The notes: a model not told the origin generated them from the sequence alone. A stretch of DNA of 64,000 bases from Parcubacteria group bacterium Greene0714_7 (GCA_007378985.1 VMHB01000001.1:128252-192251), one strand, 5' to 3'; shown: positions 8,168 to 17,881, counted from the stretch's first letter. Made by a program: numbers and translations.

Positions 8168-8238
8168 TGGGGAATCGTCTAATGGTAGGACAGAGGCCTT
8201 TGAAGCCTTTAATTGGGGTTCGAATCCCTGTTCCCCAG
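8168..8238 (+). tRNA. tRNA-Gln (anticodon UUG)
   Basis: Manual fold. Acceptor TGGGGAA/TTCCCCA starts with U1-A72 like bacterial tRNA-Gln. The D-arm is GTCT/GGAC. The anticodon stem GAGGC/GCCTT carries loop CUUUGAA. The T-arm is TGGGG-TTCGAAT-CCCTG. The discriminator is G and no CCA is encoded. A hairpin plus T-run follows at 8253-8282. Confidence 0.7.
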
Positions 8239-8408
8239 CTAGAGAAAGTTGAATCCCGATGTGAAAACATCGGGATTTTTATTTTCTCTCTGTGGACAGG
8301 GATTCGAAAGACGGAGGCGCGAAGCCACATGTTTCATGTGTTGCCGAGTCGGGGTCGAGCGCACTTAGTATTTTACGAATTTGAGGAGTAAAATACTTAG
8401 TGACGGGT

Positions 8409-8430
8409 GACCGAATCCCTGTTCCCCAGC
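8409..8430 (+). repeat. direct copy of the tRNA-Gln 3' end (T-arm plus acceptor), copy 2
   Basis: GACCGAATCCCTGTTCCCCAGC matches 8217-8238. Further copies are at 8684-8705 and, truncated, at 12611-12623. A tRNA 5'-half-like fragment sits at 8477-8501 and an inverted T-arm fragment at 8294-8308. Confidence 0.7.
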
Positions 8431-8683
8431 AGTGCACACGAATGAACACTTTTTCATTCCCCTCGCTCGCTAGACAGTAGGACAGAGGCCTTTGAAGCCT
8501 TGAATTAGAGTTTTTTGCGAGCGAAGCGATCCATTACAAAAAAGCTCGAATTCACTTCGCGGATGTTGCGTATAGCAACACAAGAAGCTAATTGGGGTAA
8601 AAATTAGAGTTGGGCGATTAGAAAATCGTGCCGAGAGGCTTCGCAAGAAATTTCAGTCAAGAAATTTACTTGTGACCGAATCC

Positions 8684-8721
8684 CTGTTCCCCAGCCAGCT
8701 TGAGATAGGTTCAATGTCCAG
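8684..8721 (+). repeat. left direct repeat (tRNA-Gln 3' end plus CAGCTTGAGATAGGTT) bounding a 3.9-kb element
   Basis: Its partner at 12611-12638 (TTTCCCCAGC CAGCTTGAGCTAGGTT) has the same junction sequence after the tRNA-derived part. Confidence 0.6.
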
Positions 8722-9191: not shown

Positions 9192-9479
9192 ATGCAATTA
9201 GTTGGAAAAGAAATCTTAATTACCTTCAAAAATGAGCATCCCGATGCGCGTTCCCAGGTCGAAGCGTGGGAAGCCGAAGTGGAGAGTGCCGAATGGAAGA
9301 CTCCTCACGAGATCAAGAGGTCATATCAGAAGGTCAGTCTCCCCGGTAAACGGCAGGCCATATTCGATCTGTGCTGGAATAAATATCGGTTATGGGTGAA
9401 GGTCGCATACAACACCGGTATCGTAATTGTAAAAGCCATCGGAACCCATAAAGAATACGAAAAGTGGAACATTGAATAG
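9192..9479 (+). CDS. higB: type II toxin-antitoxin system HigB-family toxin (RelE/ParE superfamily)
   Basis: 95 aa. WNKYRLWVKVAYNTGIVIVKAIGTHKEYEKW matches the HigB_toxin signature. Confidence 0.65.
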   Translation: MQLVGKEILITFKNEHPDARSQVEAWEAEVESAEWKTPHEIKRSYQKVSLPGKRQAIFDLCWNKYRLWVKVAYNTGIVIVKAIGTHKEYEKWNIE

Positions 9480-9482
9480 TGT

Positions 9483-10700
9483 ATGAATGACATCAAAATC
9501 ATAAAAACGAAAGAAGATTGTAATCGAGCCCTACTACTCATTGAAGGGCTTGTTGATCGTGATCCAGAGGTTGGATCCGTGGATGCAGACCGCCTTACGC
9601 TTCTCACTGCGCTAGTTAAAGACTACGAATCAAAGAATTTTCCTGAACATCTTCCTGATCCTATTGAAGCAATCAGATTCCGCATGGAGCAAGCTGACCT
9701 TAAGCCTGCAGACCTCGTGCCTTACATAGGCACTGCTGCACGAGTGTCAGAAATTCTTTCAGGGAAACGGCAACTCACGTTGGATATGGTTAGAGCACTT
9801 TCTACAGGTCTTGGTATTCCGGCAAAAGTTCTCATACAAAAACCTTCACGTAATTTTGAATCCCAAAACTGGGACACAGCGCTTGTACGCACAATGGAGC
9901 GACGTGGTTATTTTGGCAAAAAGACTCTCAAGGAGCATGACAAATCAGAATTGGTTAGCGGATTTTTTGCGATGTTTGGTCATTTACAACCCACCGTTCT
10001 TTATCGAAAGACTAGTTTCCGTTCTGCTCCCCGCACTGATAATAGTGCCTTACTTGCTTGGGGAGTTCGCGTGCTTCAAAAAGCCGCAAAAATGAAAGTT
10101 GTCACTAAGTATAAAAAAGGAACAGTCAATTTATCTTTCATGAGTGCATTAATGCAATTGAGTGCAAAAGATAAAGGCCCACTTCTCGCTCGAGATCATC
10201 TCAAGAAACATGGCATCAAACTAATCATTGAGCCACATCTTCCTAAGACTCATCTAGATGGAGCAACTTTCTTTGCCGAAAAAGAGAATCCAGTTATCGG
10301 ACTGACTATTCGTCACGATCGTCCTGATAATTTCTGGTTTACCCTGATGCACGAACTTGGACACGTCGCATTACACCAAGATAACGACATCGAATCCTTC
10401 TACGACGAGGCACTTCAAGACAAGGATGGTGTAGAAATCGACTCCAAAGAAAAGGAAGCAGATACCCTCGCCGAAGAGTCTATCCTTCCAAAGAGTAAGT
10501 GGGAAACAAGCGCAGCAAAGACAACCCCGAATCAGTTTTCTACCGAAGACTTAGCGAATGAACTGGGTGTACAAATCGCCATCATTGCTGGCATGATCCG
10601 TTTTAAACATAAAAACTTCTATTACCTGAACAAAATAGTAAACGATAAAAGTCTGAGTGTCAGACAGTACTTTATGGAAGAGTTTGAAGAAAAAATATGA
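9483..10700 (+). CDS. HigA-like XRE-family HTH protein fused to an ImmA/IrrE (M78) zinc metallopeptidase domain
   Basis: The central HTH is AARVSEILSGKRQLTLDMVRALSTGLGIPAKVL. The C-terminal HEXXH is LMHELGHVALH. The start is 4 nt after the higB stop. The stop overlaps the next gene's start (ATGA). Confidence 0.65.
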   Translation: MNDIKIIKTKEDCNRALLLIEGLVDRDPEVGSVDADRLTLLTALVKDYESKNFPEHLPDPIEAIRFRMEQADLKPADLVPYIGTAARVSEILSGKRQLTLDMVRALSTGLGIPAKVLIQKPSRNFESQNWDTALVRTMERRGYFGKKTLKEHDKSELVSGFFAMFGHLQPTVLYRKTSFRSAPRTDNSALLAWGVRVLQKAAKMKVVTKYKKGTVNLSFMSALMQLSAKDKGPLLARDHLKKHGIKLIIEPHLPKTHLDGATFFAEKENPVIGLTIRHDRPDNFWFTLMHELGHVALHQDNDIESFYDEALQDKDGVEIDSKEKEADTLAEESILPKSKWETSAAKTTPNQFSTEDLANELGVQIAIIAGMIRFKHKNFYYLNKIVNDKSLSVRQYFMEEFEEKI

Positions 10701-11842
10701 CTAAAGTAGTCAAACCATACGTCCCTATATTGCGCTGGAGACCTGCTGAAATGGCGGCATTAGAAAGATTATTTCCAGATGATAGAGAAAATGTGACGCC
10801 ATTGATTGAGTTCATAATGCCTGGACCTTCGATTGATAAAGAAACCCGCAAAGTGACAAAAACACCTAGAGACAAGTTTCTAGAAATACTACCTAATGTC
10901 ACGAAAGACTTACTGAAATCTTGCGGGAAAACTCCAACGTTTATTGATGTCCATCTCCTCGATGGAGATATCCGAGCTTCTTCGCTTGAACAAATTCTCT
11001 CTTCATCGAGCGAACTGGATTTATTCTCTGTTCCAGTTACTTACATTATTCCAGTGACTAGTACGAGCGCAGACATGGAAACCCGCACGGTGGCAGTCAA
11101 TTATGCAAAGTCCAGTGGACATGGACTCTGTATTCGTATCGACAAATCTCACCTCAAGGAAGCAAAGTTCTCATCGCATATTACCGATTTTGTTAAGGCG
11201 AATAAATTGGATGTTGAGAACACTGACTTACTTGTCGATCTGCGCGTCATTGAAAAGGAAACTGATATAACAGAAATAGTAAGACAGCTTACACAACTTC
11301 CAGACCTGAAAAAGTGGCGTTCATTTATCGTGTCTGGTGGTGTTTTCCCGAAAGATTTAAGTGCATTCACAGCCGGTGAGGTACATCCTCTTGAACGACT
11401 GGATTGGAAGTTATGGAAAGCCGTTCGAGAAGCCGGATTGATTCGTATGCCGTTTTTTTCTGACTATACGATCCAGCATCCTTTTTACGAATATGTCGCC
11501 GCCATTGGGAGTGCCAGCATACGATACACAGCTGATGATAAGTGGTGGATTTTTAGAGGTAAGATTCCAGGTCTTATTAATAGGAAAACAAAAGAAAAAG
11601 GTCCAGGACGAGAACAATACATAGGACACGCTCAAACACTTATCAAACGAGATTTTTACAAGAAGAAAGAATATAGCTTTGGTGATGGGGAGATCGCCAG
11701 AATTGCTGCTCCCGGTAATGAAAAGCCGGGGAGTCCAACCACATGGCTCACCATTGGCATCAATCACCACCTCACGCTGGTTGCACGTCAGGCCTCCAAT
11801 CTTGCCGAGAAGATTGCAGAACCTTCCACACGTGTTTCTTAA
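10697..11842 (+). CDS. sce7725-like / beta-protein family protein (partner of sce7726-type proteins)
   Basis: The N-terminal YVPILRWRPAEMAALERL ... TPLIEF pattern matches what I recall of the beta-protein family. The start is translationally coupled to the upstream M78 gene. The 3' end overlaps the convergent gene by 71 nt. Confidence 0.4.
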   Translation: MTKVVKPYVPILRWRPAEMAALERLFPDDRENVTPLIEFIMPGPSIDKETRKVTKTPRDKFLEILPNVTKDLLKSCGKTPTFIDVHLLDGDIRASSLEQILSSSSELDLFSVPVTYIIPVTSTSADMETRTVAVNYAKSSGHGLCIRIDKSHLKEAKFSSHITDFVKANKLDVENTDLLVDLRVIEKETDITEIVRQLTQLPDLKKWRSFIVSGGVFPKDLSAFTAGEVHPLERLDWKLWKAVREAGLIRMPFFSDYTIQHPFYEYVAAIGSASIRYTADDKWWIFRGKIPGLINRKTKEKGPGREQYIGHAQTLIKRDFYKKKEYSFGDGEIARIAAPGNEKPGSPTTWLTIGINHHLTLVARQASNLAEKIAEPSTRVS

Positions 11843-12386
11843 GTGGTTTGAGTTCCATTGATTCAGCAAGTCGTTCGTAGACTAATTCGCGCGGTTTTGA
11901 GCGGACCCCATCCGCTTTACCGAGATTCTCTAGTTTATCGAGTGCTTCACCTCTCCATAGCATTCGAGCGATCGAGACATGATCCTGTTCCGGGTTATTT
12001 TTCGGTTTTCTGATCTTGTTAAAAAAGACTTGACCGTCCTCTCCTATATGTGCGGTATCAATGCCCCACCATTCAGGAATCATCTTAAATGCATCAACGA
12101 AATGTTTAGTGCCCACAATAAGTGTCACTTGATCAAAGATCGCATTATAAGCGTGTATTTGCTCGGGGAGTCTACTGAGTGTGTCGCGATCGCTTTTGAT
12201 TTCAAAGCCGCGCAAGACACCGTTTACAACGGCAACGTCAATTCTTACGGCTCCATGCCAGATTCCCAGCTCTGGAAGCACCCGATAATTCGGATAGTCT
12301 TTTGAGAGTCGATTTACGAGCGCCTCTCTTATTATGGTGTCGTTTGTTTGATTTTTTGTCCCAAGGGCAACACGACACAAATTCAT
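11772..12386 (-). CDS. sce7726-like small PD-(D/E)xK-fold protein
   Basis: RIDVAVVNGVLRGFEIKSDRDTLSRLPEQ carries the D ... E-x-K motif and length typical of the sce7726 family. It is convergent with and overlaps the sce7725-like gene. Confidence 0.45.
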   Translation of the reverse strand: MNLCRVALGTKNQTNDTIIREALVNRLSKDYPNYRVLPELGIWHGAVRIDVAVVNGVLRGFEIKSDRDTLSRLPEQIHAYNAIFDQVTLIVGTKHFVDAFKMIPEWWGIDTAHIGEDGQVFFNKIRKPKNNPEQDHVSIARMLWRGEALDKLENLGKADGVRSKPRELVYERLAESMELKPLKKHVWKVLQSSRQDWRPDVQPA

Positions 12387-13374: not shown

Positions 13375-13728
13375 ATGCGTATGTCGGACCTTCAAAGGCT
13401 TACCGAGGAGATTATTGCGTTTCGTAATGCTCGCGATTGGAAGCAATTTCATAACTCTAAAGACTGCGCTATTTCTCTTTCTCTAGAAGCAGCAGAGCTG
13501 TTGGAGCATTTTCAGTGGAAGAACAAGGAAGAGGTAAAAAAATATATTGAAACCAATAAATCTGATATCGGTGAAGAATTGGCCGATGTTTTGTATTGGG
13601 TTTTACTTATGAGTCATGATTTGGACATTGATATTTTAAGTGCGCTTGGAAAGAAAATTAAAAAGAATGAAGAAAAATATCCAATAGAAAAAGCGAAAGG
13701 AGTACATACGAAATATACAAAATTATGA
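13375..13728 (+). CDS. MazG-like nucleoside triphosphate pyrophosphohydrolase (small all-alpha NTP-PPase)
   Basis: RDWKQFHNSKDCAISLSLEAAELLEHFQWK and EELADVLYWVLLMSHDLDID are MazG/dCTPase-like EExxE/D motifs. The stop overlaps the downstream start (ATGA). Confidence 0.6.
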   Translation: MRMSDLQRLTEEIIAFRNARDWKQFHNSKDCAISLSLEAAELLEHFQWKNKEEVKKYIETNKSDIGEELADVLYWVLLMSHDLDIDILSALGKKIKKNEEKYPIEKAKGVHTKYTKL

Positions 13729-16001
13729 TTGTATACGAAGCCACAGCTAAAAAATTCATTGAGGATGTGGATTCTAATCAGATTCTTTCTGAGATTGAGA
13801 AGGCCTTCCGTGAAAAGCTCGGTAGAGGCATACCTCCTGGAGAGGTCAGTGCATATGTAAACTCACTACCTCATATGGAGAGGGTGGTCCGGCGGGCCGG
13901 AGTTGCGGACGATTGTGGAATTCTAATTGAGTACAAAATACCCCTGACCAACTTTCGCATAGATTTTGTGATTTCAGGGACAGACGAAGAAGGGAATAAG
14001 AATTTTGTAATTGTCGAATTGAAGCAATGGCAGAAAGCAAGAATTGCGGAGGGGGATGGGCTCGTTGAGTCATTTACGGGAGGTGCTCAGAGAGTAGTTA
14101 CTCATCCGAGCTACCAGTCCTCCAGGTATAAGGACTTCATGGGTGACTTTAACGAAGCGATATATAGCGGCTCTGTTAAGGCGTATTCGTGTGCTTACCT
14201 TCACAACTACCCCACAAGCGAGCCCGAACCGTTGCTCGATCATAAGTACCACAACGTTATTGCTAATTCACCCATATATTTCCGAGATGACCAAGCAAAG
14301 CTTCAGGACTTTATTGCAAAGTATGTAAAGTATGGGAAAGGTATGGACGTGCTATACGAAATTAGCAACGGAACCATACGACCCTCTAAGCGACTCATAG
14401 ATCATGTCGCCAGTATGTTCAAGGGCAATCAAAACTATATTCTAATGGACGAACAGAAGGTTGCCTTTGAGACTGCTCGATCCGTAGCCAATAAAGGTGA
14501 AAAAGCGATAGTAATAATTAAGGGAGGGCCAGGGACGGGCAAATCTGTAATCTCTGTTAATTTGGTGAGCGCTTTACTGACAGACAAACTAAATGCGTTA
14601 TTTGTTGCCCCGAATTCATCATTTCGCGACGTGCTGGTCAAAAAATTAACTCTTGAGAATTCTGCTCAAAGAATCAAGAACATCTTTAAGGGGTCTGCTT
14701 CTTTTTATAATGCAGAGGAGAACGAGTTTGATGTCCTAATTGTTGACGAAGCCCATAGGCTGAAGAAAAAAGGAGCTTTTATGTATGAGGGTGTGAATCA
14801 GGTCGCTGACGTTATTAAAGCTGCCCGAACGTCGATTTTCTTTATAGATGATGATCAGGCAGTTAGACCTGATGATATTGGAACCGTGCACGAATTGAAA
14901 CGACTAGCTGAGCAACACGACGCAAAAATATATGAAATGGAGCTAACAGCGCAATTTAGATGTGCCGGAGCGGAGGGCTATATAAATTGGCTGAATGACA
15001 CATTGCACTTAAAGGAAACTGCCAATTACGATGGCTGGGACAATAAGAGCTTCGATTTTAAAATTTTCGATGACCCAAACAAGTTGCGCGAAGCCATTAG
15101 CGAGAAATCAAAAAAGGGTAACGTTGCCAGAATCCTTGCGGGATATGCATGGGAGTGGACTGCTGCAAATAAGGGTAATGCGGACGGCGAAGTCGAGGAT
15201 ATCGTAATTTCAGAATTCGACTTCAGGATGCCGTGGAATTCACGCAAGGTTGGAACAACTTGGGCGATCGATGAAAAAGGAATTGAACAGGCTGGCTGTA
15301 TTCACACTTCCCAAGGATTAGAGTTTGATTACGTTGGTGTAATAATTGGAGACGATTTAAATTTTGATACGGAGAGTAAACTTTTCTCTACAGACCACAA
15401 GAAATATAAGGATAAGACTGGAAAGAAAGGCATGAAAGAGAAGCCTGAAGAATTGAATAGACTAGTCAGGAATATATATAAAGTTTTGATGACTCGTGGG
15501 ATGAAGGGCTGCTATGTCTATTTTTCGGATAAGGGGCTAGAGCATTATTTTAAAGAGAGAGTACGACTTACTGAGAGTAATTCAAGGCCTGGTGTACCTG
15601 TAGTGTCACCAATTACTCGAGAAATGCTTCAAATACCTCTAGTCGGATCGGCACCTTGTGGAGCTCCGTTACTCGGCCAGGAGAATATTGAAGAATATAT
15701 ATCTGTCGAGAAATCAAAGATCAGATCAGGGTTTGAGTACTTTGTTCTCAGAGCTGAAGGCGACTCCATGAATCTTGCTGGCATAAACGACGGTGACCTT
15801 GTGTTGTGTCGTCAACAATTAAAAGCGGATACCGGTGATAGGGTCGTGGCTTTACTTGGGGACAATGTGACGATAAAGGAATACGGTCCCCGCAAGGACG
15901 GAGTGCGCCTTCTTTTGCCAAAAAGTTCAAATAAAGATCACACACCAATTACCCCAAGCGAAGGAGATAGTGTGCAAGGAATTGTGCAAGAGGTCTTATG
16001 A
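13725..16001 (+). CDS. three-domain protein: N-terminal PD-(D/E)xK nuclease-like, DUF2075/SF1-helicase-like ATPase, and C-terminal LexA/UmuD-type S24 autopeptidase
   Basis: The PD-(D/E)xK region is RIDFVISG ... FVIVELKQW (about 13956-14035). Walker A is GGPGTGKSV (about 14521) and Walker B is VLIVDEAH. The UvrD_C-like region is CIHTSQGLEFDYVGVI. The S24 tail has the Cys-Gly site APCG (15657-15662), the Ser motif GDSM (Ser at 15765) and the Lys motif VTIKEY. Confidence 0.7.
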   Translation: MIVYEATAKKFIEDVDSNQILSEIEKAFREKLGRGIPPGEVSAYVNSLPHMERVVRRAGVADDCGILIEYKIPLTNFRIDFVISGTDEEGNKNFVIVELKQWQKARIAEGDGLVESFTGGAQRVVTHPSYQSSRYKDFMGDFNEAIYSGSVKAYSCAYLHNYPTSEPEPLLDHKYHNVIANSPIYFRDDQAKLQDFIAKYVKYGKGMDVLYEISNGTIRPSKRLIDHVASMFKGNQNYILMDEQKVAFETARSVANKGEKAIVIIKGGPGTGKSVISVNLVSALLTDKLNALFVAPNSSFRDVLVKKLTLENSAQRIKNIFKGSASFYNAEENEFDVLIVDEAHRLKKKGAFMYEGVNQVADVIKAARTSIFFIDDDQAVRPDDIGTVHELKRLAEQHDAKIYEMELTAQFRCAGAEGYINWLNDTLHLKETANYDGWDNKSFDFKIFDDPNKLREAISEKSKKGNVARILAGYAWEWTAANKGNADGEVEDIVISEFDFRMPWNSRKVGTTWAIDEKGIEQAGCIHTSQGLEFDYVGVIIGDDLNFDTESKLFSTDHKKYKDKTGKKGMKEKPEELNRLVRNIYKVLMTRGMKGCYVYFSDKGLEHYFKERVRLTESNSRPGVPVVSPITREMLQIPLVGSAPCGAPLLGQENIEEYISVEKSKIRSGFEYFVLRAEGDSMNLAGINDGDLVLCRQQLKADTGDRVVALLGDNVTIKEYGPRKDGVRLLLPKSSNKDHTPITPSEGDSVQGIVQEVL

Positions 16002-16387
16002 AAATAATACAAGACGACGTATTAAGTTATAGAGAAATGTGTAATTCTGAAAACCAGGAAGTTATGCAACGTGGTATGAATTTTCGTATGAACCCTTCGT
16101 ACTCAGTTATTTTGATGTCACAGAGAGCAAATGCACCATATTCAGACAAGGTTCATGGTGATGGGGTTACAATCGAGTACGAAGGACATGATATTTCAAA
16201 AGCTTATAGTAAAAATCCAAAAGTAGAAGATCAGCCAGAAAAACTTTCAAGCGGTAAGCTAACACAGAATGGTTTCTTTATTAAGGCTGTGAATGATTTC
16301 AAAATGAAAGGGGGAATACCAGAACTAGTAAAAGTATATGAAAAGTGTTTCCTGGAGTCTGGTCTTTTAAAGGGTACTTTGATTTAG
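15998..16387 (+). CDS. hypothetical protein, possibly the N-terminal part of the downstream HNH nuclease (frameshift)
   Basis: 129-aa ORF ending 43 nt inside the next ORF, which is in the -1 frame. The start overlaps the upstream stop (ATGA). Confidence 0.35.
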   Translation: MKIIQDDVLSYREMCNSENQEVMQRGMNFRMNPSYSVILMSQRANAPYSDKVHGDGVTIEYEGHDISKAYSKNPKVEDQPEKLSSGKLTQNGFFIKAVNDFKMKGGIPELVKVYEKCFLESGLLKGTLI

Positions 16388-16692
16388 TTGATTATAAAGT
16401 TGTTCACGATCAATATCGAAATGTATTTCGATACATTCTACAACTATCTGATCGCTCAGAAAGTTCGAATGTAGAAAAAAAGAAGTTGGAGCATAGCAGG
16501 TTGATTCCTTCAGAGGTTAAAAGAGAGGTTTGGAAAAGAGATGGGGGGGAATGTGTTATTTGTGGCGATAATAAAAATCTTCACTTTGATCATGATTTAC
16601 CATTTTCTAGAGGTGGAACTAGTTTATCGACAAAGAATGTTCGCCTGCTTTGTATGAAACACAATCTTCAGAAATCAGATAAAATTGAGTAG
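16345..16692 (+). CDS. HNH endonuclease domain protein
   Basis: CVICGDNKNLHFDHDLPFSRGG ... NVRLLCMKHN is an HNH motif with Zn-binding Cys/His. The true start is uncertain and a frameshift from 15998-16387 is possible. Confidence 0.55.
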   Translation: MFPGVWSFKGYFDLVDYKVVHDQYRNVFRYILQLSDRSESSNVEKKKLEHSRLIPSEVKREVWKRDGGECVICGDNKNLHFDHDLPFSRGGTSLSTKNVRLLCMKHNLQKSDKIE

Positions 16693-16848: not shown

Positions 16849-16884
16849 CCACACCAAGGCGAACGAACGTTCGCCTTGGTGTGG
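16849..16884. repeat. 36-bp perfect palindrome CCACACCAAGGCGAACG|AACGTTCGCCTTGGTGTGG followed by TATAATTTTTT
   Basis: Seen directly. It lies between the DUF2779 gene fragment and the RhuM/Fic start, and could be a terminator, an operator or an insertion boundary. Confidence 0.6.
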
Positions 16885-16900
16885 TATAATTTTTTAAAGT

Positions 16901-17881
16901 ATGAAAAAGAAACCAGTAAAAAATAACGTAGTTATCTATCAAGCAAAAAACGGCGCTATTGAGCTTCGTGGGGATTTTGAGCATGAGAGTATTTGGGCAA
17001 CACAGGCTGAAATAGCTCGACTATTTGATGTGACTCCTCAAAATATTACTTTACACCTTGGAGGTATTTTTAAGGAAAAAGAGCTTGATCAAAAGGCAAC
17101 TTGTAAGGATTTCTTACAAGTTCAAACAGAGGGAGATAGGCAGGTAAAGAGAAACGTTAAGCTCTATAATCTTGATGTCATTATTGCTGTTGGTTACCGA
17201 ATTAATTCGGTAATAGGTACGAATTTTCGCATATGGGCAACCAAGACGCTCCGTGAGCACATAACCAAAGGCTACACAATAAACCGTAAGCAAATCGGCA
17301 AGAATTACGATTCTTTTATGAAAACGGTTTCGGACATTCAGGCACTGTTGCCCGAACACGTAACGCTCGACCCTAAAGCGATACTCGAACTTGTAAAAGA
17401 GTTCTCAAGTACGTGGGTGTCACTTGATGCCTATGACAAAGGAACGCTCAAGGCTGTTGGATCAACTAAAAAATCAATTACACTCACCGGTATTGAATTG
17501 ACTGAAGCGATTTTGAGTTTCCGTTCCGAGTTGTTGAACAAAGGTGAGGCAACAGAGATATTTGCACAAGAAAGATCTGAGGGAAGTGTTGAAGGAATAG
17601 TAGGGAACGTCATGCAATCATTCGGTGGCAAACCCCTCTATGTGTCTCTCGAAGAGAAAGCGGCACACCTCTTGTACTTTATGGTGAAGAATCATCCGTT
17701 TGTTGATGGCAACAAACGCTCAGGTGCATTTGCGTTCATTTGGTTTTTACGTAAAGCAAAAGTTAAAACAATGCGGAATATAAACCAGGGAGCGTTGACT
17801 GCGCTTACTCTTTTGATTGCAGAAAGCGATCCCGATAAGAAAGACCACATGGTTGCGTTGGTTACAGAGATTCTGAAGTAG
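16901..17881 (+). CDS. RhuM-family N-terminal domain fused to Fic/Doc (death-on-curing-type) domain protein
   Basis: The RhuM-like N-terminus is VVIYQ ... IELRGDFEHESIWATQAEIARLF ... NLDVIIAVGYRINS ... FRIWATKTL. The C-terminal Fic motif is HPFVDGNKRSGA. Confidence 0.65.
   Translation: MKKKPVKNNVVIYQAKNGAIELRGDFEHESIWATQAEIARLFDVTPQNITLHLGGIFKEKELDQKATCKDFLQVQTEGDRQVKRNVKLYNLDVIIAVGYRINSVIGTNFRIWATKTLREHITKGYTINRKQIGKNYDSFMKTVSDIQALLPEHVTLDPKAILELVKEFSSTWVSLDAYDKGTLKAVGSTKKSITLTGIELTEAILSFRSELLNKGEATEIFAQERSEGSVEGIVGNVMQSFGGKPLYVSLEEKAAHLLYFMVKNHPFVDGNKRSGAFAFIWFLRKAKVKTMRNINQGALTALTLLIAESDPDKKDHMVALVTEILK

Follow-up and report, generated by a model that had tools for sequence, protein, structure and literature searches.

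The locus and its genes

A stretch of 64,000 nucleotides (nt) from Parcubacteria group bacterium Greene0714_7, hereafter called the window, contains an operon (13375-16692) whose central gene encodes a protein of 758 amino acids (aa) that joins a nuclease, a helicase-like ATPase and an S24 autopeptidase. A hypothetical protein of this metagenome-assembled genome of the candidate phyla radiation is 100% identical to it. We estimate a probability of about one half that the locus is a defence cassette against phages and mobile genetic elements with a core of two genes, a DCTPP1-like MazG enzyme and an Nhi-like nuclease-helicase, whose LexA-derived tail would serve as an autoproteolytic switch responding to filaments of RecA on single-stranded DNA (ssDNA). 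The operon comprises the following features:

13375-13728, + strand: gene of a MazG-like nucleoside triphosphate pyrophosphohydrolase of 117 aa (PF12643)
13725-16001, + strand: gene of the 758-aa nuclease-helicase-S24 protein (call of the open reading frame, ORF, and Pfam)
13725-14444, + strand: N-terminal domain with predicted PD-(D/E)xK restriction-endonuclease fold, aa 1-240 (structure model; putative catalytic residues D80 and E98-x-K100)
14502-15530, + strand: DUF2075 / Schlafen-group-3-type superfamily 1 (SF1) helicase-like ATPase, aa 260-602 (PF09848)
15531-15635, + strand: linker between helicase and cleavage-site region, aa 603-637, variable in length and sequence across the aligned fused homologues
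15636-15965, + strand: LexA-derived S24 autopeptidase domain, aa 638-747 (PF00717), with nucleophile Ser681 and general base Lys718
15657-15662, + strand: Cys645-Gly646, the predicted scissile bond, in the conserved segment IPLVGSAPCGAPLL (alignment to LexA and UmuD)
15998-16692, + strand: SRA-HNH endonuclease gene, split into the ORFs 15998-16387 and 16345-16692 (joined ORFs)
16849-16884, no strand: perfect palindrome of 36 bp, terminator-like (sequence reading)

An earlier interpretation, made from the DNA alone and here called the sequence-only reading, had reported the ORFs and their motifs, and all of them were found in place. Its domain calls likewise stand, namely a MazG-like protein, a PD-(D/E)xK-like head, a DUF2075 ATPase, an intact S24 domain with Ser/Lys and X-Gly, and an HNH motif. 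The two ATGA stop/start overlaps to which it had ascribed translational coupling were read directly in the DNA, the first between the MazG-like and the 758-aa gene (13725-13728) and the second between the 758-aa and the SRA-HNH gene (15998-16001).

The nuclease head and the DUF2075 ATPase

The head of the 758-aa protein contains the motifs RIDFV (aa 78-82) and VELKQW (aa 97-102), while in the ATPase aa 267-274 form Walker A (GGPGTGKS) and aa 340-345 Walker B (VDEAHR). Searches of Pfam and of the sequences in the PDB gave no match for residues 1-240. This region was modelled confidently (predicted local distance difference test, pLDDT, 86), and the model shows a PD-(D/E)xK restriction-endonuclease fold, i.e. 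an alpha/beta core like that of restriction endonucleases, whose adjacent strands carry D...(D/E)xK. The ATPase region was matched by DUF2075/SLFN-g3 (PF09848) over the complete profile (aa 260-602; E 5.7e-99; 332 bits; positions 1-354 of 354), and its Walker motifs (GGPGTGKS and DEAH) are invariant.

The sequence-only reading did not recognise this architecture as that of a named defence system. For the core this has to be corrected: a nuclease followed by DUF2075 is also how two validated defence proteins are built, Nhi (S. epidermidis SERP2475; Bari et al. 2022) and its counterpart Nhi-like (Millman et al. 2022), both of which protect against phages. Like the 758-aa protein, they consist of an N-terminal PD-(D/E)xK-type nuclease and a DUF2075 (PF09848) SF1 ATPase and are found in defence islands. 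The definition of Nhi-like, a nuclease predicted at the N-terminus plus DUF2075 in one polypeptide, applies to the 758-aa protein. The difference lies in the head. The PADLOC models of AbiO (E 1.6e-18) and Nhi (E 2.8e-16) match aa 235-499 only, and from the Nhi model PDLC02372 only positions 178-409 of 470 align, so that the model is not covered as a whole; the heads differ, and that of the 758-aa protein is not detectably of the same family. Furthermore, the text consulted presents Nhi and Nhi-like as single proteins and mentions neither a MazG-like partner nor an S24 tail.

In the literature searched, no account was found of DUF2075 with MazG, of MazG together with DUF2075 and S24, or of a defence helicase fused to S24. 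The papers of 2025-26 on bacterial Schlafen proteins treat the RNase domain and not the helicase-type family. Human SLFN11 (Schlafen group 3) shares the ATPase family PF09848 and also couples the sensing of ssDNA or replication stress to a nuclease output, which is an analogy of logic and not a matter of membership; it differs by its N-terminal tRNase domain and has neither a PD-(D/E)xK head nor a protease switch.

The LexA-type S24 tail

The C-terminal part of the protein was identified as Peptidase_S24 (PF00717; aa 638-747; E 1.4e-20; 73.6 bits at a cut-off of 23.3). It contains the motifs APCGAP (aa 643-648, with Cys645-Gly646), GDSM (aa 679-682, with Ser681) and VTIKEY (aa 715-720, with Lys718). 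LexA structures (PDB entry 3k2z, 1e-13) align with the tail, beginning at the cleavage-site loop and continuing to the C-terminus. In these alignments, Ser681 and Lys718 correspond to Ser119 and Lys156 of LexA, and Cys645-Gly646 corresponds to Ala84-Gly85 of E. coli LexA and to Cys24-Gly25 of UmuD. The S24 fold and the catalytic Ser and Lys, whose absence would have spoken against the sequence-only reading, were both detected and align with LexA.

The tail scored better with the NCBIfam model of LexA (8.7e-21) than with that of UmuD (9.7e-14). It is 52-58% identical to two LexA sequences of Patescibacteria which share the PCG site, and 49-60% identical to matches annotated as LexA (LexA_DNA_bind plus S24) from Patescibacteria and Nitrospirota. 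The sampled LexA proteins of both groups carry a Cys-Gly site, either xPCGxP or TCG, and read ...IPLVG(T/S)APCGAPLL... Because the LexA proteins of this lineage read PCG, Cys-Gly is the normal LexA site here and not a hallmark of UmuD. The "UmuD-type" site of the sequence-only reading is consequently present as a Cys-Gly bond, but it is not diagnostic of UmuD. Judged by these alignments, the tail is the captured C-terminal half of a LexA repressor, comprising the cleavage-site loop and the Ser-Lys catalytic and dimerisation core.

The protein itself is not a LexA. No match to the LexA DNA-binding domain PF01726 was found in the 758 residues, and the LexA model TIGR00498 reached 74 bits at a cut-off of 111 and covered the C-terminal part only. 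With LexA and UmuD it shares a complete C-terminal domain with cleavage-site loop, Ser-Lys dyad and scissile X-Gly bond, but it lacks the winged helix and carries an N-terminal part of about 640 aa, the nuclease-helicase, instead. Since the nuclease-helicase replaces the winged-helix DNA-binding domain of LexA, the protein is neither a repressor nor an accessory factor of a polymerase.

In an alignment of 24 fused homologues with E. coli LexA and UmuD, X-Gly, Ser (GxSM) and Lys were invariant. Each of the 50 distinct S24 tails has retained both Ser and Lys. A (C/A)-Gly pair was present in every fused tail that was aligned or read by eye, and a regular expression found the full site pattern in 48 of the 50.

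Standalone S24 proteins of 126-136 aa (P0157 and P0167) were considered as partners of a split version, but none of them lies beside a DUF2075 gene. These proteins are the most similar ones to the tail, one of them is encoded near a gene of a Y-family polymerase, and they are UmuD-like. A lexA gene of a Paceibacterota contig (L121, 2950-3618), whose product has a Cys-Gly site, was observed between the genes of an N6/N4 DNA methylase and of ThsB-TIR. Directly 5' of its start codon the sequence GTATACTATT occurs twice in tandem and may be an operator.

Distribution and mobility of the tail

The core family has many members, with more than 8000 matches in a word-indexed search and, in an exhaustive search (E <= 1e-30), 763 clusters at 50% identity. 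Most members have a length of about 617 aa and end just past the helicase. A C-terminal S24 domain is a minority feature, which was found in 19 of the 120 top matches and in about 15% of the full-length representatives; in the sample of loci analysed with flanking DNA the share is biased upward (37 of 92).

Two types of tail can be distinguished, both of which pass the Pfam threshold for S24. The LexA-like type 1, as in the window, is found chiefly in Patescibacteria and Saccharibacteria. The more divergent type 2 carries an insert, the site AACG or AAAG, and the motifs G(H/R/E)SM and (S/T)(I/V)K; contigs from the human gut are included. Tails of type 2 occupy the C-terminal ~190 aa of the proteins at the loci L050, L059, L065, L073, L075-L079, L083 and L087-L111, which stem from gut and environmental metagenomes.

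The tail is also combined with a different head. At L012 (4716-6740), L014 (4431-6500) and L118 (2986-5004) a GIY-YIG domain replaces the PD-(D/E)xK domain, and these three loci retain DUF2075, the upstream MazG-like gene and a type 1 tail 66-80% identical to that of the window. Identity of the tail is uncoupled from that of the core: the protein of L013 shows 45% identity in the core and 82% in the tail, and that of L009 shows 71% in the core and 47% in the tail. When 201 core sequences are placed on a neighbour-joining tree, the S24 domain is patchily distributed, requiring at least 10 parsimony changes for type 1 and at least 7 for type 2, and the nearest neighbours of fused proteins are often unfused at 82-88% core identity. 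As far as the tree and the identities indicate, the tails are often gained, lost or swapped, and the tail is a mobile accessory module. Because this mobile tail keeps its catalytic apparatus, selection probably acts on self-cleavage. The predicted N-terminal cleavage product (~645 aa) matches the abundant unfused form of ~617 aa in length.

The cassette is commonly carried on plasmids. A phage origin was rejected, as only one full-length homologue was present in 50,697 phage records.

The MazG-like partner

The product of the first gene was identified by PF12643 (E 1.9e-19; 70 bits at a cut-off of 27). Among the structures in the PDB it matched an archaeal pyrophosphatase (4qgp, 7e-20) and, over the full length, DCTPP1/RS21-C6 (6sqw and 2a3q, 2e-14). 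The ExxE...ExxD residues and the tryptophans of the pocket of these enzymes are kept in the MazG-like protein. Its metal ligands E38, E41, E44, E68 and D71 are 95-100% conserved among 80 distinct neighbours of family members, and because of the conservation of these five acidic residues the partner is predicted to be an active enzyme.

The pairing of both genes was analysed in 92 distinct family members with flanking DNA, of which 89 were usable. A MazG-like gene on the same strand was adjacent in 80 of these 89 loci (90%), with family members that are 36-80% identical. The positions of the MazG-like gene were distributed as follows:

Directly upstream (<= 100 nt, often overlapping): 61 loci
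Directly downstream: 9 loci
100-1200 nt upstream: 10 loci
Elsewhere in the locus: 1 locus
Absent: 8 loci
Flank not covered: 3 loci

The pairing was also found with unfused proteins, for example in Saccharibacteria and at L119. In addition, two annotated plasmid records, one from Priestia and one from a haloarchaeon, have a "nucleotide pyrophosphohydrolase" 5' of a "DUF2075 domain-containing protein". The conserved unit is the MazG-like gene plus the gene of the Nhi-like nuclease-DUF2075 protein; it occurs in both Bacteria and Archaea, whether or not an S24 domain is present. The sequence-only reading had regarded MazG as a partner of the S24-bearing protein. The partnership is real, but it is not peculiar to this form, as about 90% of the family members have it. 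Likewise, MazG and DUF2075 are conserved together in defence islands, whereas S24 and HNH, which had been assigned to the same arrangement, are optional.

Nucleotide depletion, the role proposed for MazG in the sequence-only reading, is one option; the closest characterised relative, DCTPP1, is a sanitiser of 5-modified deoxycytidine triphosphate (dCTP). DCTPP1 prefers 5-methyl and 5-halo dCTP, restricts the entry of both into DNA, and hydrolyses dCTP, too (PMC4491611). By analogy, the MazG-like enzyme probably acts on modified dCTP-type nucleotides. It differs from DCTPP1 by its fixed place in the operon of a nuclease-helicase, an arrangement that is not known for DCTPP1.

The SRA-HNH gene

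The third gene was described in the sequence-only reading as HNH nuclease ORFs coupled to the 758-aa gene. The HNH motif and the coupling were found, but the two ORFs represent a single frameshifted SRA-HNH gene, which is an optional neighbour. If 15998-16387 and 16345-16692 are joined at nt 16345, a protein of 231 aa results, which aligns end to end with uninterrupted proteins of 231 aa and is 98% identical to the intact P0241; thousands of intact homologues exist. An SRA fold and an HNH catalytic motif occur in this one polypeptide. The HNH motif in 16345-16692 is borderline for PF01844 (21.7 bits at a cut-off of 21.4). According to these similarities, the gene is that of a TagI/ScoMcrA-like, modification-dependent Type IV-like endonuclease; it differs from enzymes of the TagI/ScoMcrA type by its short form (231 aa) in the window, the missing Pfam match for SRA, the coupling to a nuclease-helicase gene, and the frameshift.

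The reading frame is not intact in the window. A deletion of 1 nt is located in the A-run at 16341-16344, where the window reads GA-AAAG and a 90% identical copy reads GAAAAAG, i.e. a run of five A minus one A. A programmed frameshift is unlikely, with thousands of uninterrupted homologues and one additional A in the 90% identical copy. The gene is probably non-functional in this genome.

In other loci, the SRA-HNH gene lies 3' of the nuclease-helicase gene, often with an overlap of 4 nt (L013, L024-26, L047, L118, L119/120 and L061), and at L035 it lies 5' of MazG. It is recurrent and often coupled, but absent from most loci, so that an obligate third component in the form of HNH was rejected. 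Lutz et al. reported modification-dependent endonucleases among the neighbours of DUF2075 genes.

Genomic setting

The setting of the operon is a defence island. Upstream, a complete PD-Lambda-2 system was identified (9192-11842), and downstream a RhuM-Fic gene follows, which is a candidate defence gene of PADLOC. The relevant features are:

8168-8239: tRNA-Gln (tRNA search)
9192-9479, + strand: PD-Lambda-2 A, HigB-like (PADLOC, 8e-34)
9483-10700, + strand: PD-Lambda-2 B, helix-turn-helix/M78 peptidase (PADLOC, 2e-133)
10697-11842, + strand: PD-Lambda-2 C, 'Beta protein' (PADLOC, 2e-43)
16901-17881, downstream of the operon: RhuM-Fic gene, PADLOC candidate PDC-S23 (E 3e-110)

As to the "tRNA-linked accessory island with toxin modules" of the sequence-only reading, the tRNA-Gln is located 5 kb upstream of the operon, and the "toxin modules" in between are the PD-Lambda-2 system. 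In other loci, the neighbours of the cassette are TIR/SMODS, HEPN-nucleotidyltransferase, Zeta toxin, Type I restriction-modification (R-M) and a McrB-N-like reader. On a plasmid of Priestia aryabhattai (NZ_CP083270; locus L115, 2548-5866), the gene of a DUF3578 protein, a McrB-N-like reader of modified DNA, overlaps the MazG-like gene 5' of the DUF2075 gene. DUF3578 is another modified-DNA reader tied to the cassette, and a Type I R-M system adjoins the latter.

The last 18 nt at the 3' end of the tRNA-Gln, GAATCCCTGTTCCCCAGC, are repeated exactly at 8413-8430 and 8678-8695 (0.01 copies expected by chance), and a copy of an anticodon-arm segment is present near 8478-8503. These copies look like stacked integration scars. 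An island bounded by att sites was rejected, as the 3' end recurs only beside the tRNA and no distal copy is present in the window. A gene of the sce7726 family (11772-12386, - strand; NCBIfam 1.7e-45; PADLOC 'cll' 4e-23) shares ~70 nt with the 3' end of PD-Lambda-2 C. Between 18868 and 24698 the GC content is 0.51-0.55, compared to ~0.43 elsewhere in the window, and two large proteins encoded there (499 and 1414 aa) are rich in Thr/Ser, contain internal repeats and are predicted to be secreted.

The palindrome at 16849-16884 has a stem of 16 bp with 10 G-C pairs, after which the + strand continues with a T-rich tail. It is terminator-like and probably forms the 3' boundary of the operon. It lies directly 5' of a TATAAT sequence and the RhuM-Fic gene and could act as a terminator or operator or combine both functions. 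Its centre, CGAACGAACGTTCG, is an exact SOS (Cheo) box of the Gram-positive type (CGAACN4GTTCG). A function as LexA operator is unsupported, as two lexA genes of related lineages have no such box upstream.

Proposed function and alternative explanations

At rest, the LexA-type tail would keep the nuclease-helicase tethered, dimeric or auto-inhibited. RecA-ssDNA filaments, formed on intermediates of phage replication or recombination or upon DNA damage, would stimulate self-cleavage at Cys645-Gly646, as is the case for LexA. Cleavage would free the nuclease-helicase of ~645 aa, the counterpart of the free-standing enzymes of ~617 aa, and this product may degrade or unwind the invading DNA. It is because the released enzyme corresponds to free-standing members of the family that cleavage is read as activation. 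The MazG partner would hydrolyse non-canonical, 5-modified dCTP-type nucleotides, either keeping modified bases out of the host DNA, a self-protection if the system targets modified DNA, or starving phages which need them. Such a substrate would fit the theme of modified DNA, because SRA-HNH and McrB-N-like proteins occur as neighbours and phages escape from Nhi-like by loss of a DNA methylase.

Several points weigh against this interpretation as a RecA-responsive switch in a defence cassette. Most family members work without an S24 tail, which is dispensable for the core function, and the fused fraction in the locus sample is inflated, as the query by whose similarity the loci were ranked itself carries S24. 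The match to the Nhi model of PADLOC is confined to the helicase, so that homology to the studied Nhi is partial; the 758-aa protein is Nhi-like by architecture and not a member of the Nhi sequence family. The specificity of MazG is extrapolated from a distant eukaryotic relative, with the homology to DCTPP1 as sole evidence. No site resembling an SOS box was found upstream of the operon, and neither recA nor a separate lexA is present within the 64-kb window. That the protein cleaves itself, depends on RecA, acts as nuclease or helicase and protects against phages is an inference, and the sequence does not reveal the direction of the switch.

This direction could be the opposite one. The cleavage of LexA inactivates it, as the dimerisation domain is separated from the DNA-binding part, and the tail of the 758-aa protein corresponds to the full C-terminal domain of LexA including the dimerisation core. 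Cleavage stimulated by RecA filaments during the SOS response of the host might strip off a needed dimerisation domain or expose a degron, as in LexA, and in this way turn the nuclease-helicase off, which would spare ssDNA gaps and repair intermediates of the host. Self-damage is a real risk, since helicase domains of the Schlafen type engage ssDNA (PMC13056530). This off-switch is nevertheless considered unlikely: the N-terminal product corresponds to the dominant free-standing enzymes of 617 aa, which argues that it is functional, and the occurrence of the tail on very different cores and heads is more easily explained by a generic inhibition than by a required dimer. The tail could also act without proteolysis, by dimerisation, by docking to RecA filaments (ssDNA-RecA or phage recombinase filaments) or as a heterodimer with the LexA of the host, linking the enzyme to the SOS regulon. 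The C-terminal domain of LexA is the part that binds RecA filaments and dimerises, and with 52-58% identity to the C-terminal domains of two patescibacterial LexA proteins a heterodimerisation is conceivable. The scissile (C/A)-Gly bond and the Ser/Lys pair are, however, retained across two divergent subtypes, and because of this retention selection probably acts on catalysis and the cleavage site and not on a binding surface alone; a purely non-proteolytic tail appears quite improbable.

The role of the MazG-like enzyme is to be judged separately. Instead of a sanitiser, it could be an effector depleting canonical deoxynucleoside triphosphates (e.g. dCTP) and stalling phage replication. Its catalytic residues are conserved, the activity of DCTPP1 extends to dCTP (PMC4491611), and defensive dCTP deaminases and dGTPases exist. 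We rate this role as doubtful, since the 117-aa protein is constitutively co-transcribed and coupled and has no recognisable regulatory domain, so that an unregulated depletion of canonical nucleotides would be costly; the SRA-HNH and McrB-N-like neighbours and the escape from Nhi-like by methylase loss point to modified DNA instead. Finally, the whole cassette might serve the repair or tolerance of DNA damage and not immunity, with MazG sanitising the nucleotide pool, the nuclease-helicase processing forks or gaps and S24 cleavage providing a UmuD-like timing. Both S24 and MazG have classical roles in DNA damage, and genes of the UvrD/AddB type lie near some loci. A patchy and mobile distribution that includes plasmids, the consistent location in defence islands, the coupling to a Type IV restriction enzyme and the experimental defence phenotype of proteins with the same architecture (Nhi and Nhi-like) make a repair module very improbable. 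The preferred interpretation is that of a defence cassette with a LexA-derived switch.

A more far-reaching view, which we put forward as tentative, is that the C-terminal half of LexA has been captured repeatedly as a portable, RecA-sensing proteolytic fuse for immune effectors, and that an obligate DCTPP1-like partner prevents modified cytosine nucleotides from entering the host genome, where they would expose self to attack by a nuclease-helicase that senses modification. RecA-ssDNA filaments induced by a phage would thereby be coupled directly, at the post-translational level, to the liberation of a nuclease of the Schlafen-helicase type. MazG-like and Nhi-like proteins would then form a widespread, unnamed two-gene defence system of Bacteria and Archaea.

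Significance

If the tail is a fuse triggered by RecA filaments, a defence effector would be under post-translational control by the co-protease signal of the SOS response and not under control by transcription. The phylogeny suggests that this fuse arose or moved many times, and the mechanism is simple.

The near-universal presence of the MazG-like gene means that "single-gene" Nhi-like proteins may be two-gene systems with control of the nucleotide pool. If this partner is required, the annotation and the reconstitution of Nhi-like loci would change. The helicase family shared with human SLFN11 points to a cross-kingdom parallel, in which ssDNA or replication stress leads to a nuclease response. 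Furthermore, the locus extends the scarce information on immunity that exists for genomes of candidate phyla (Patescibacteria).

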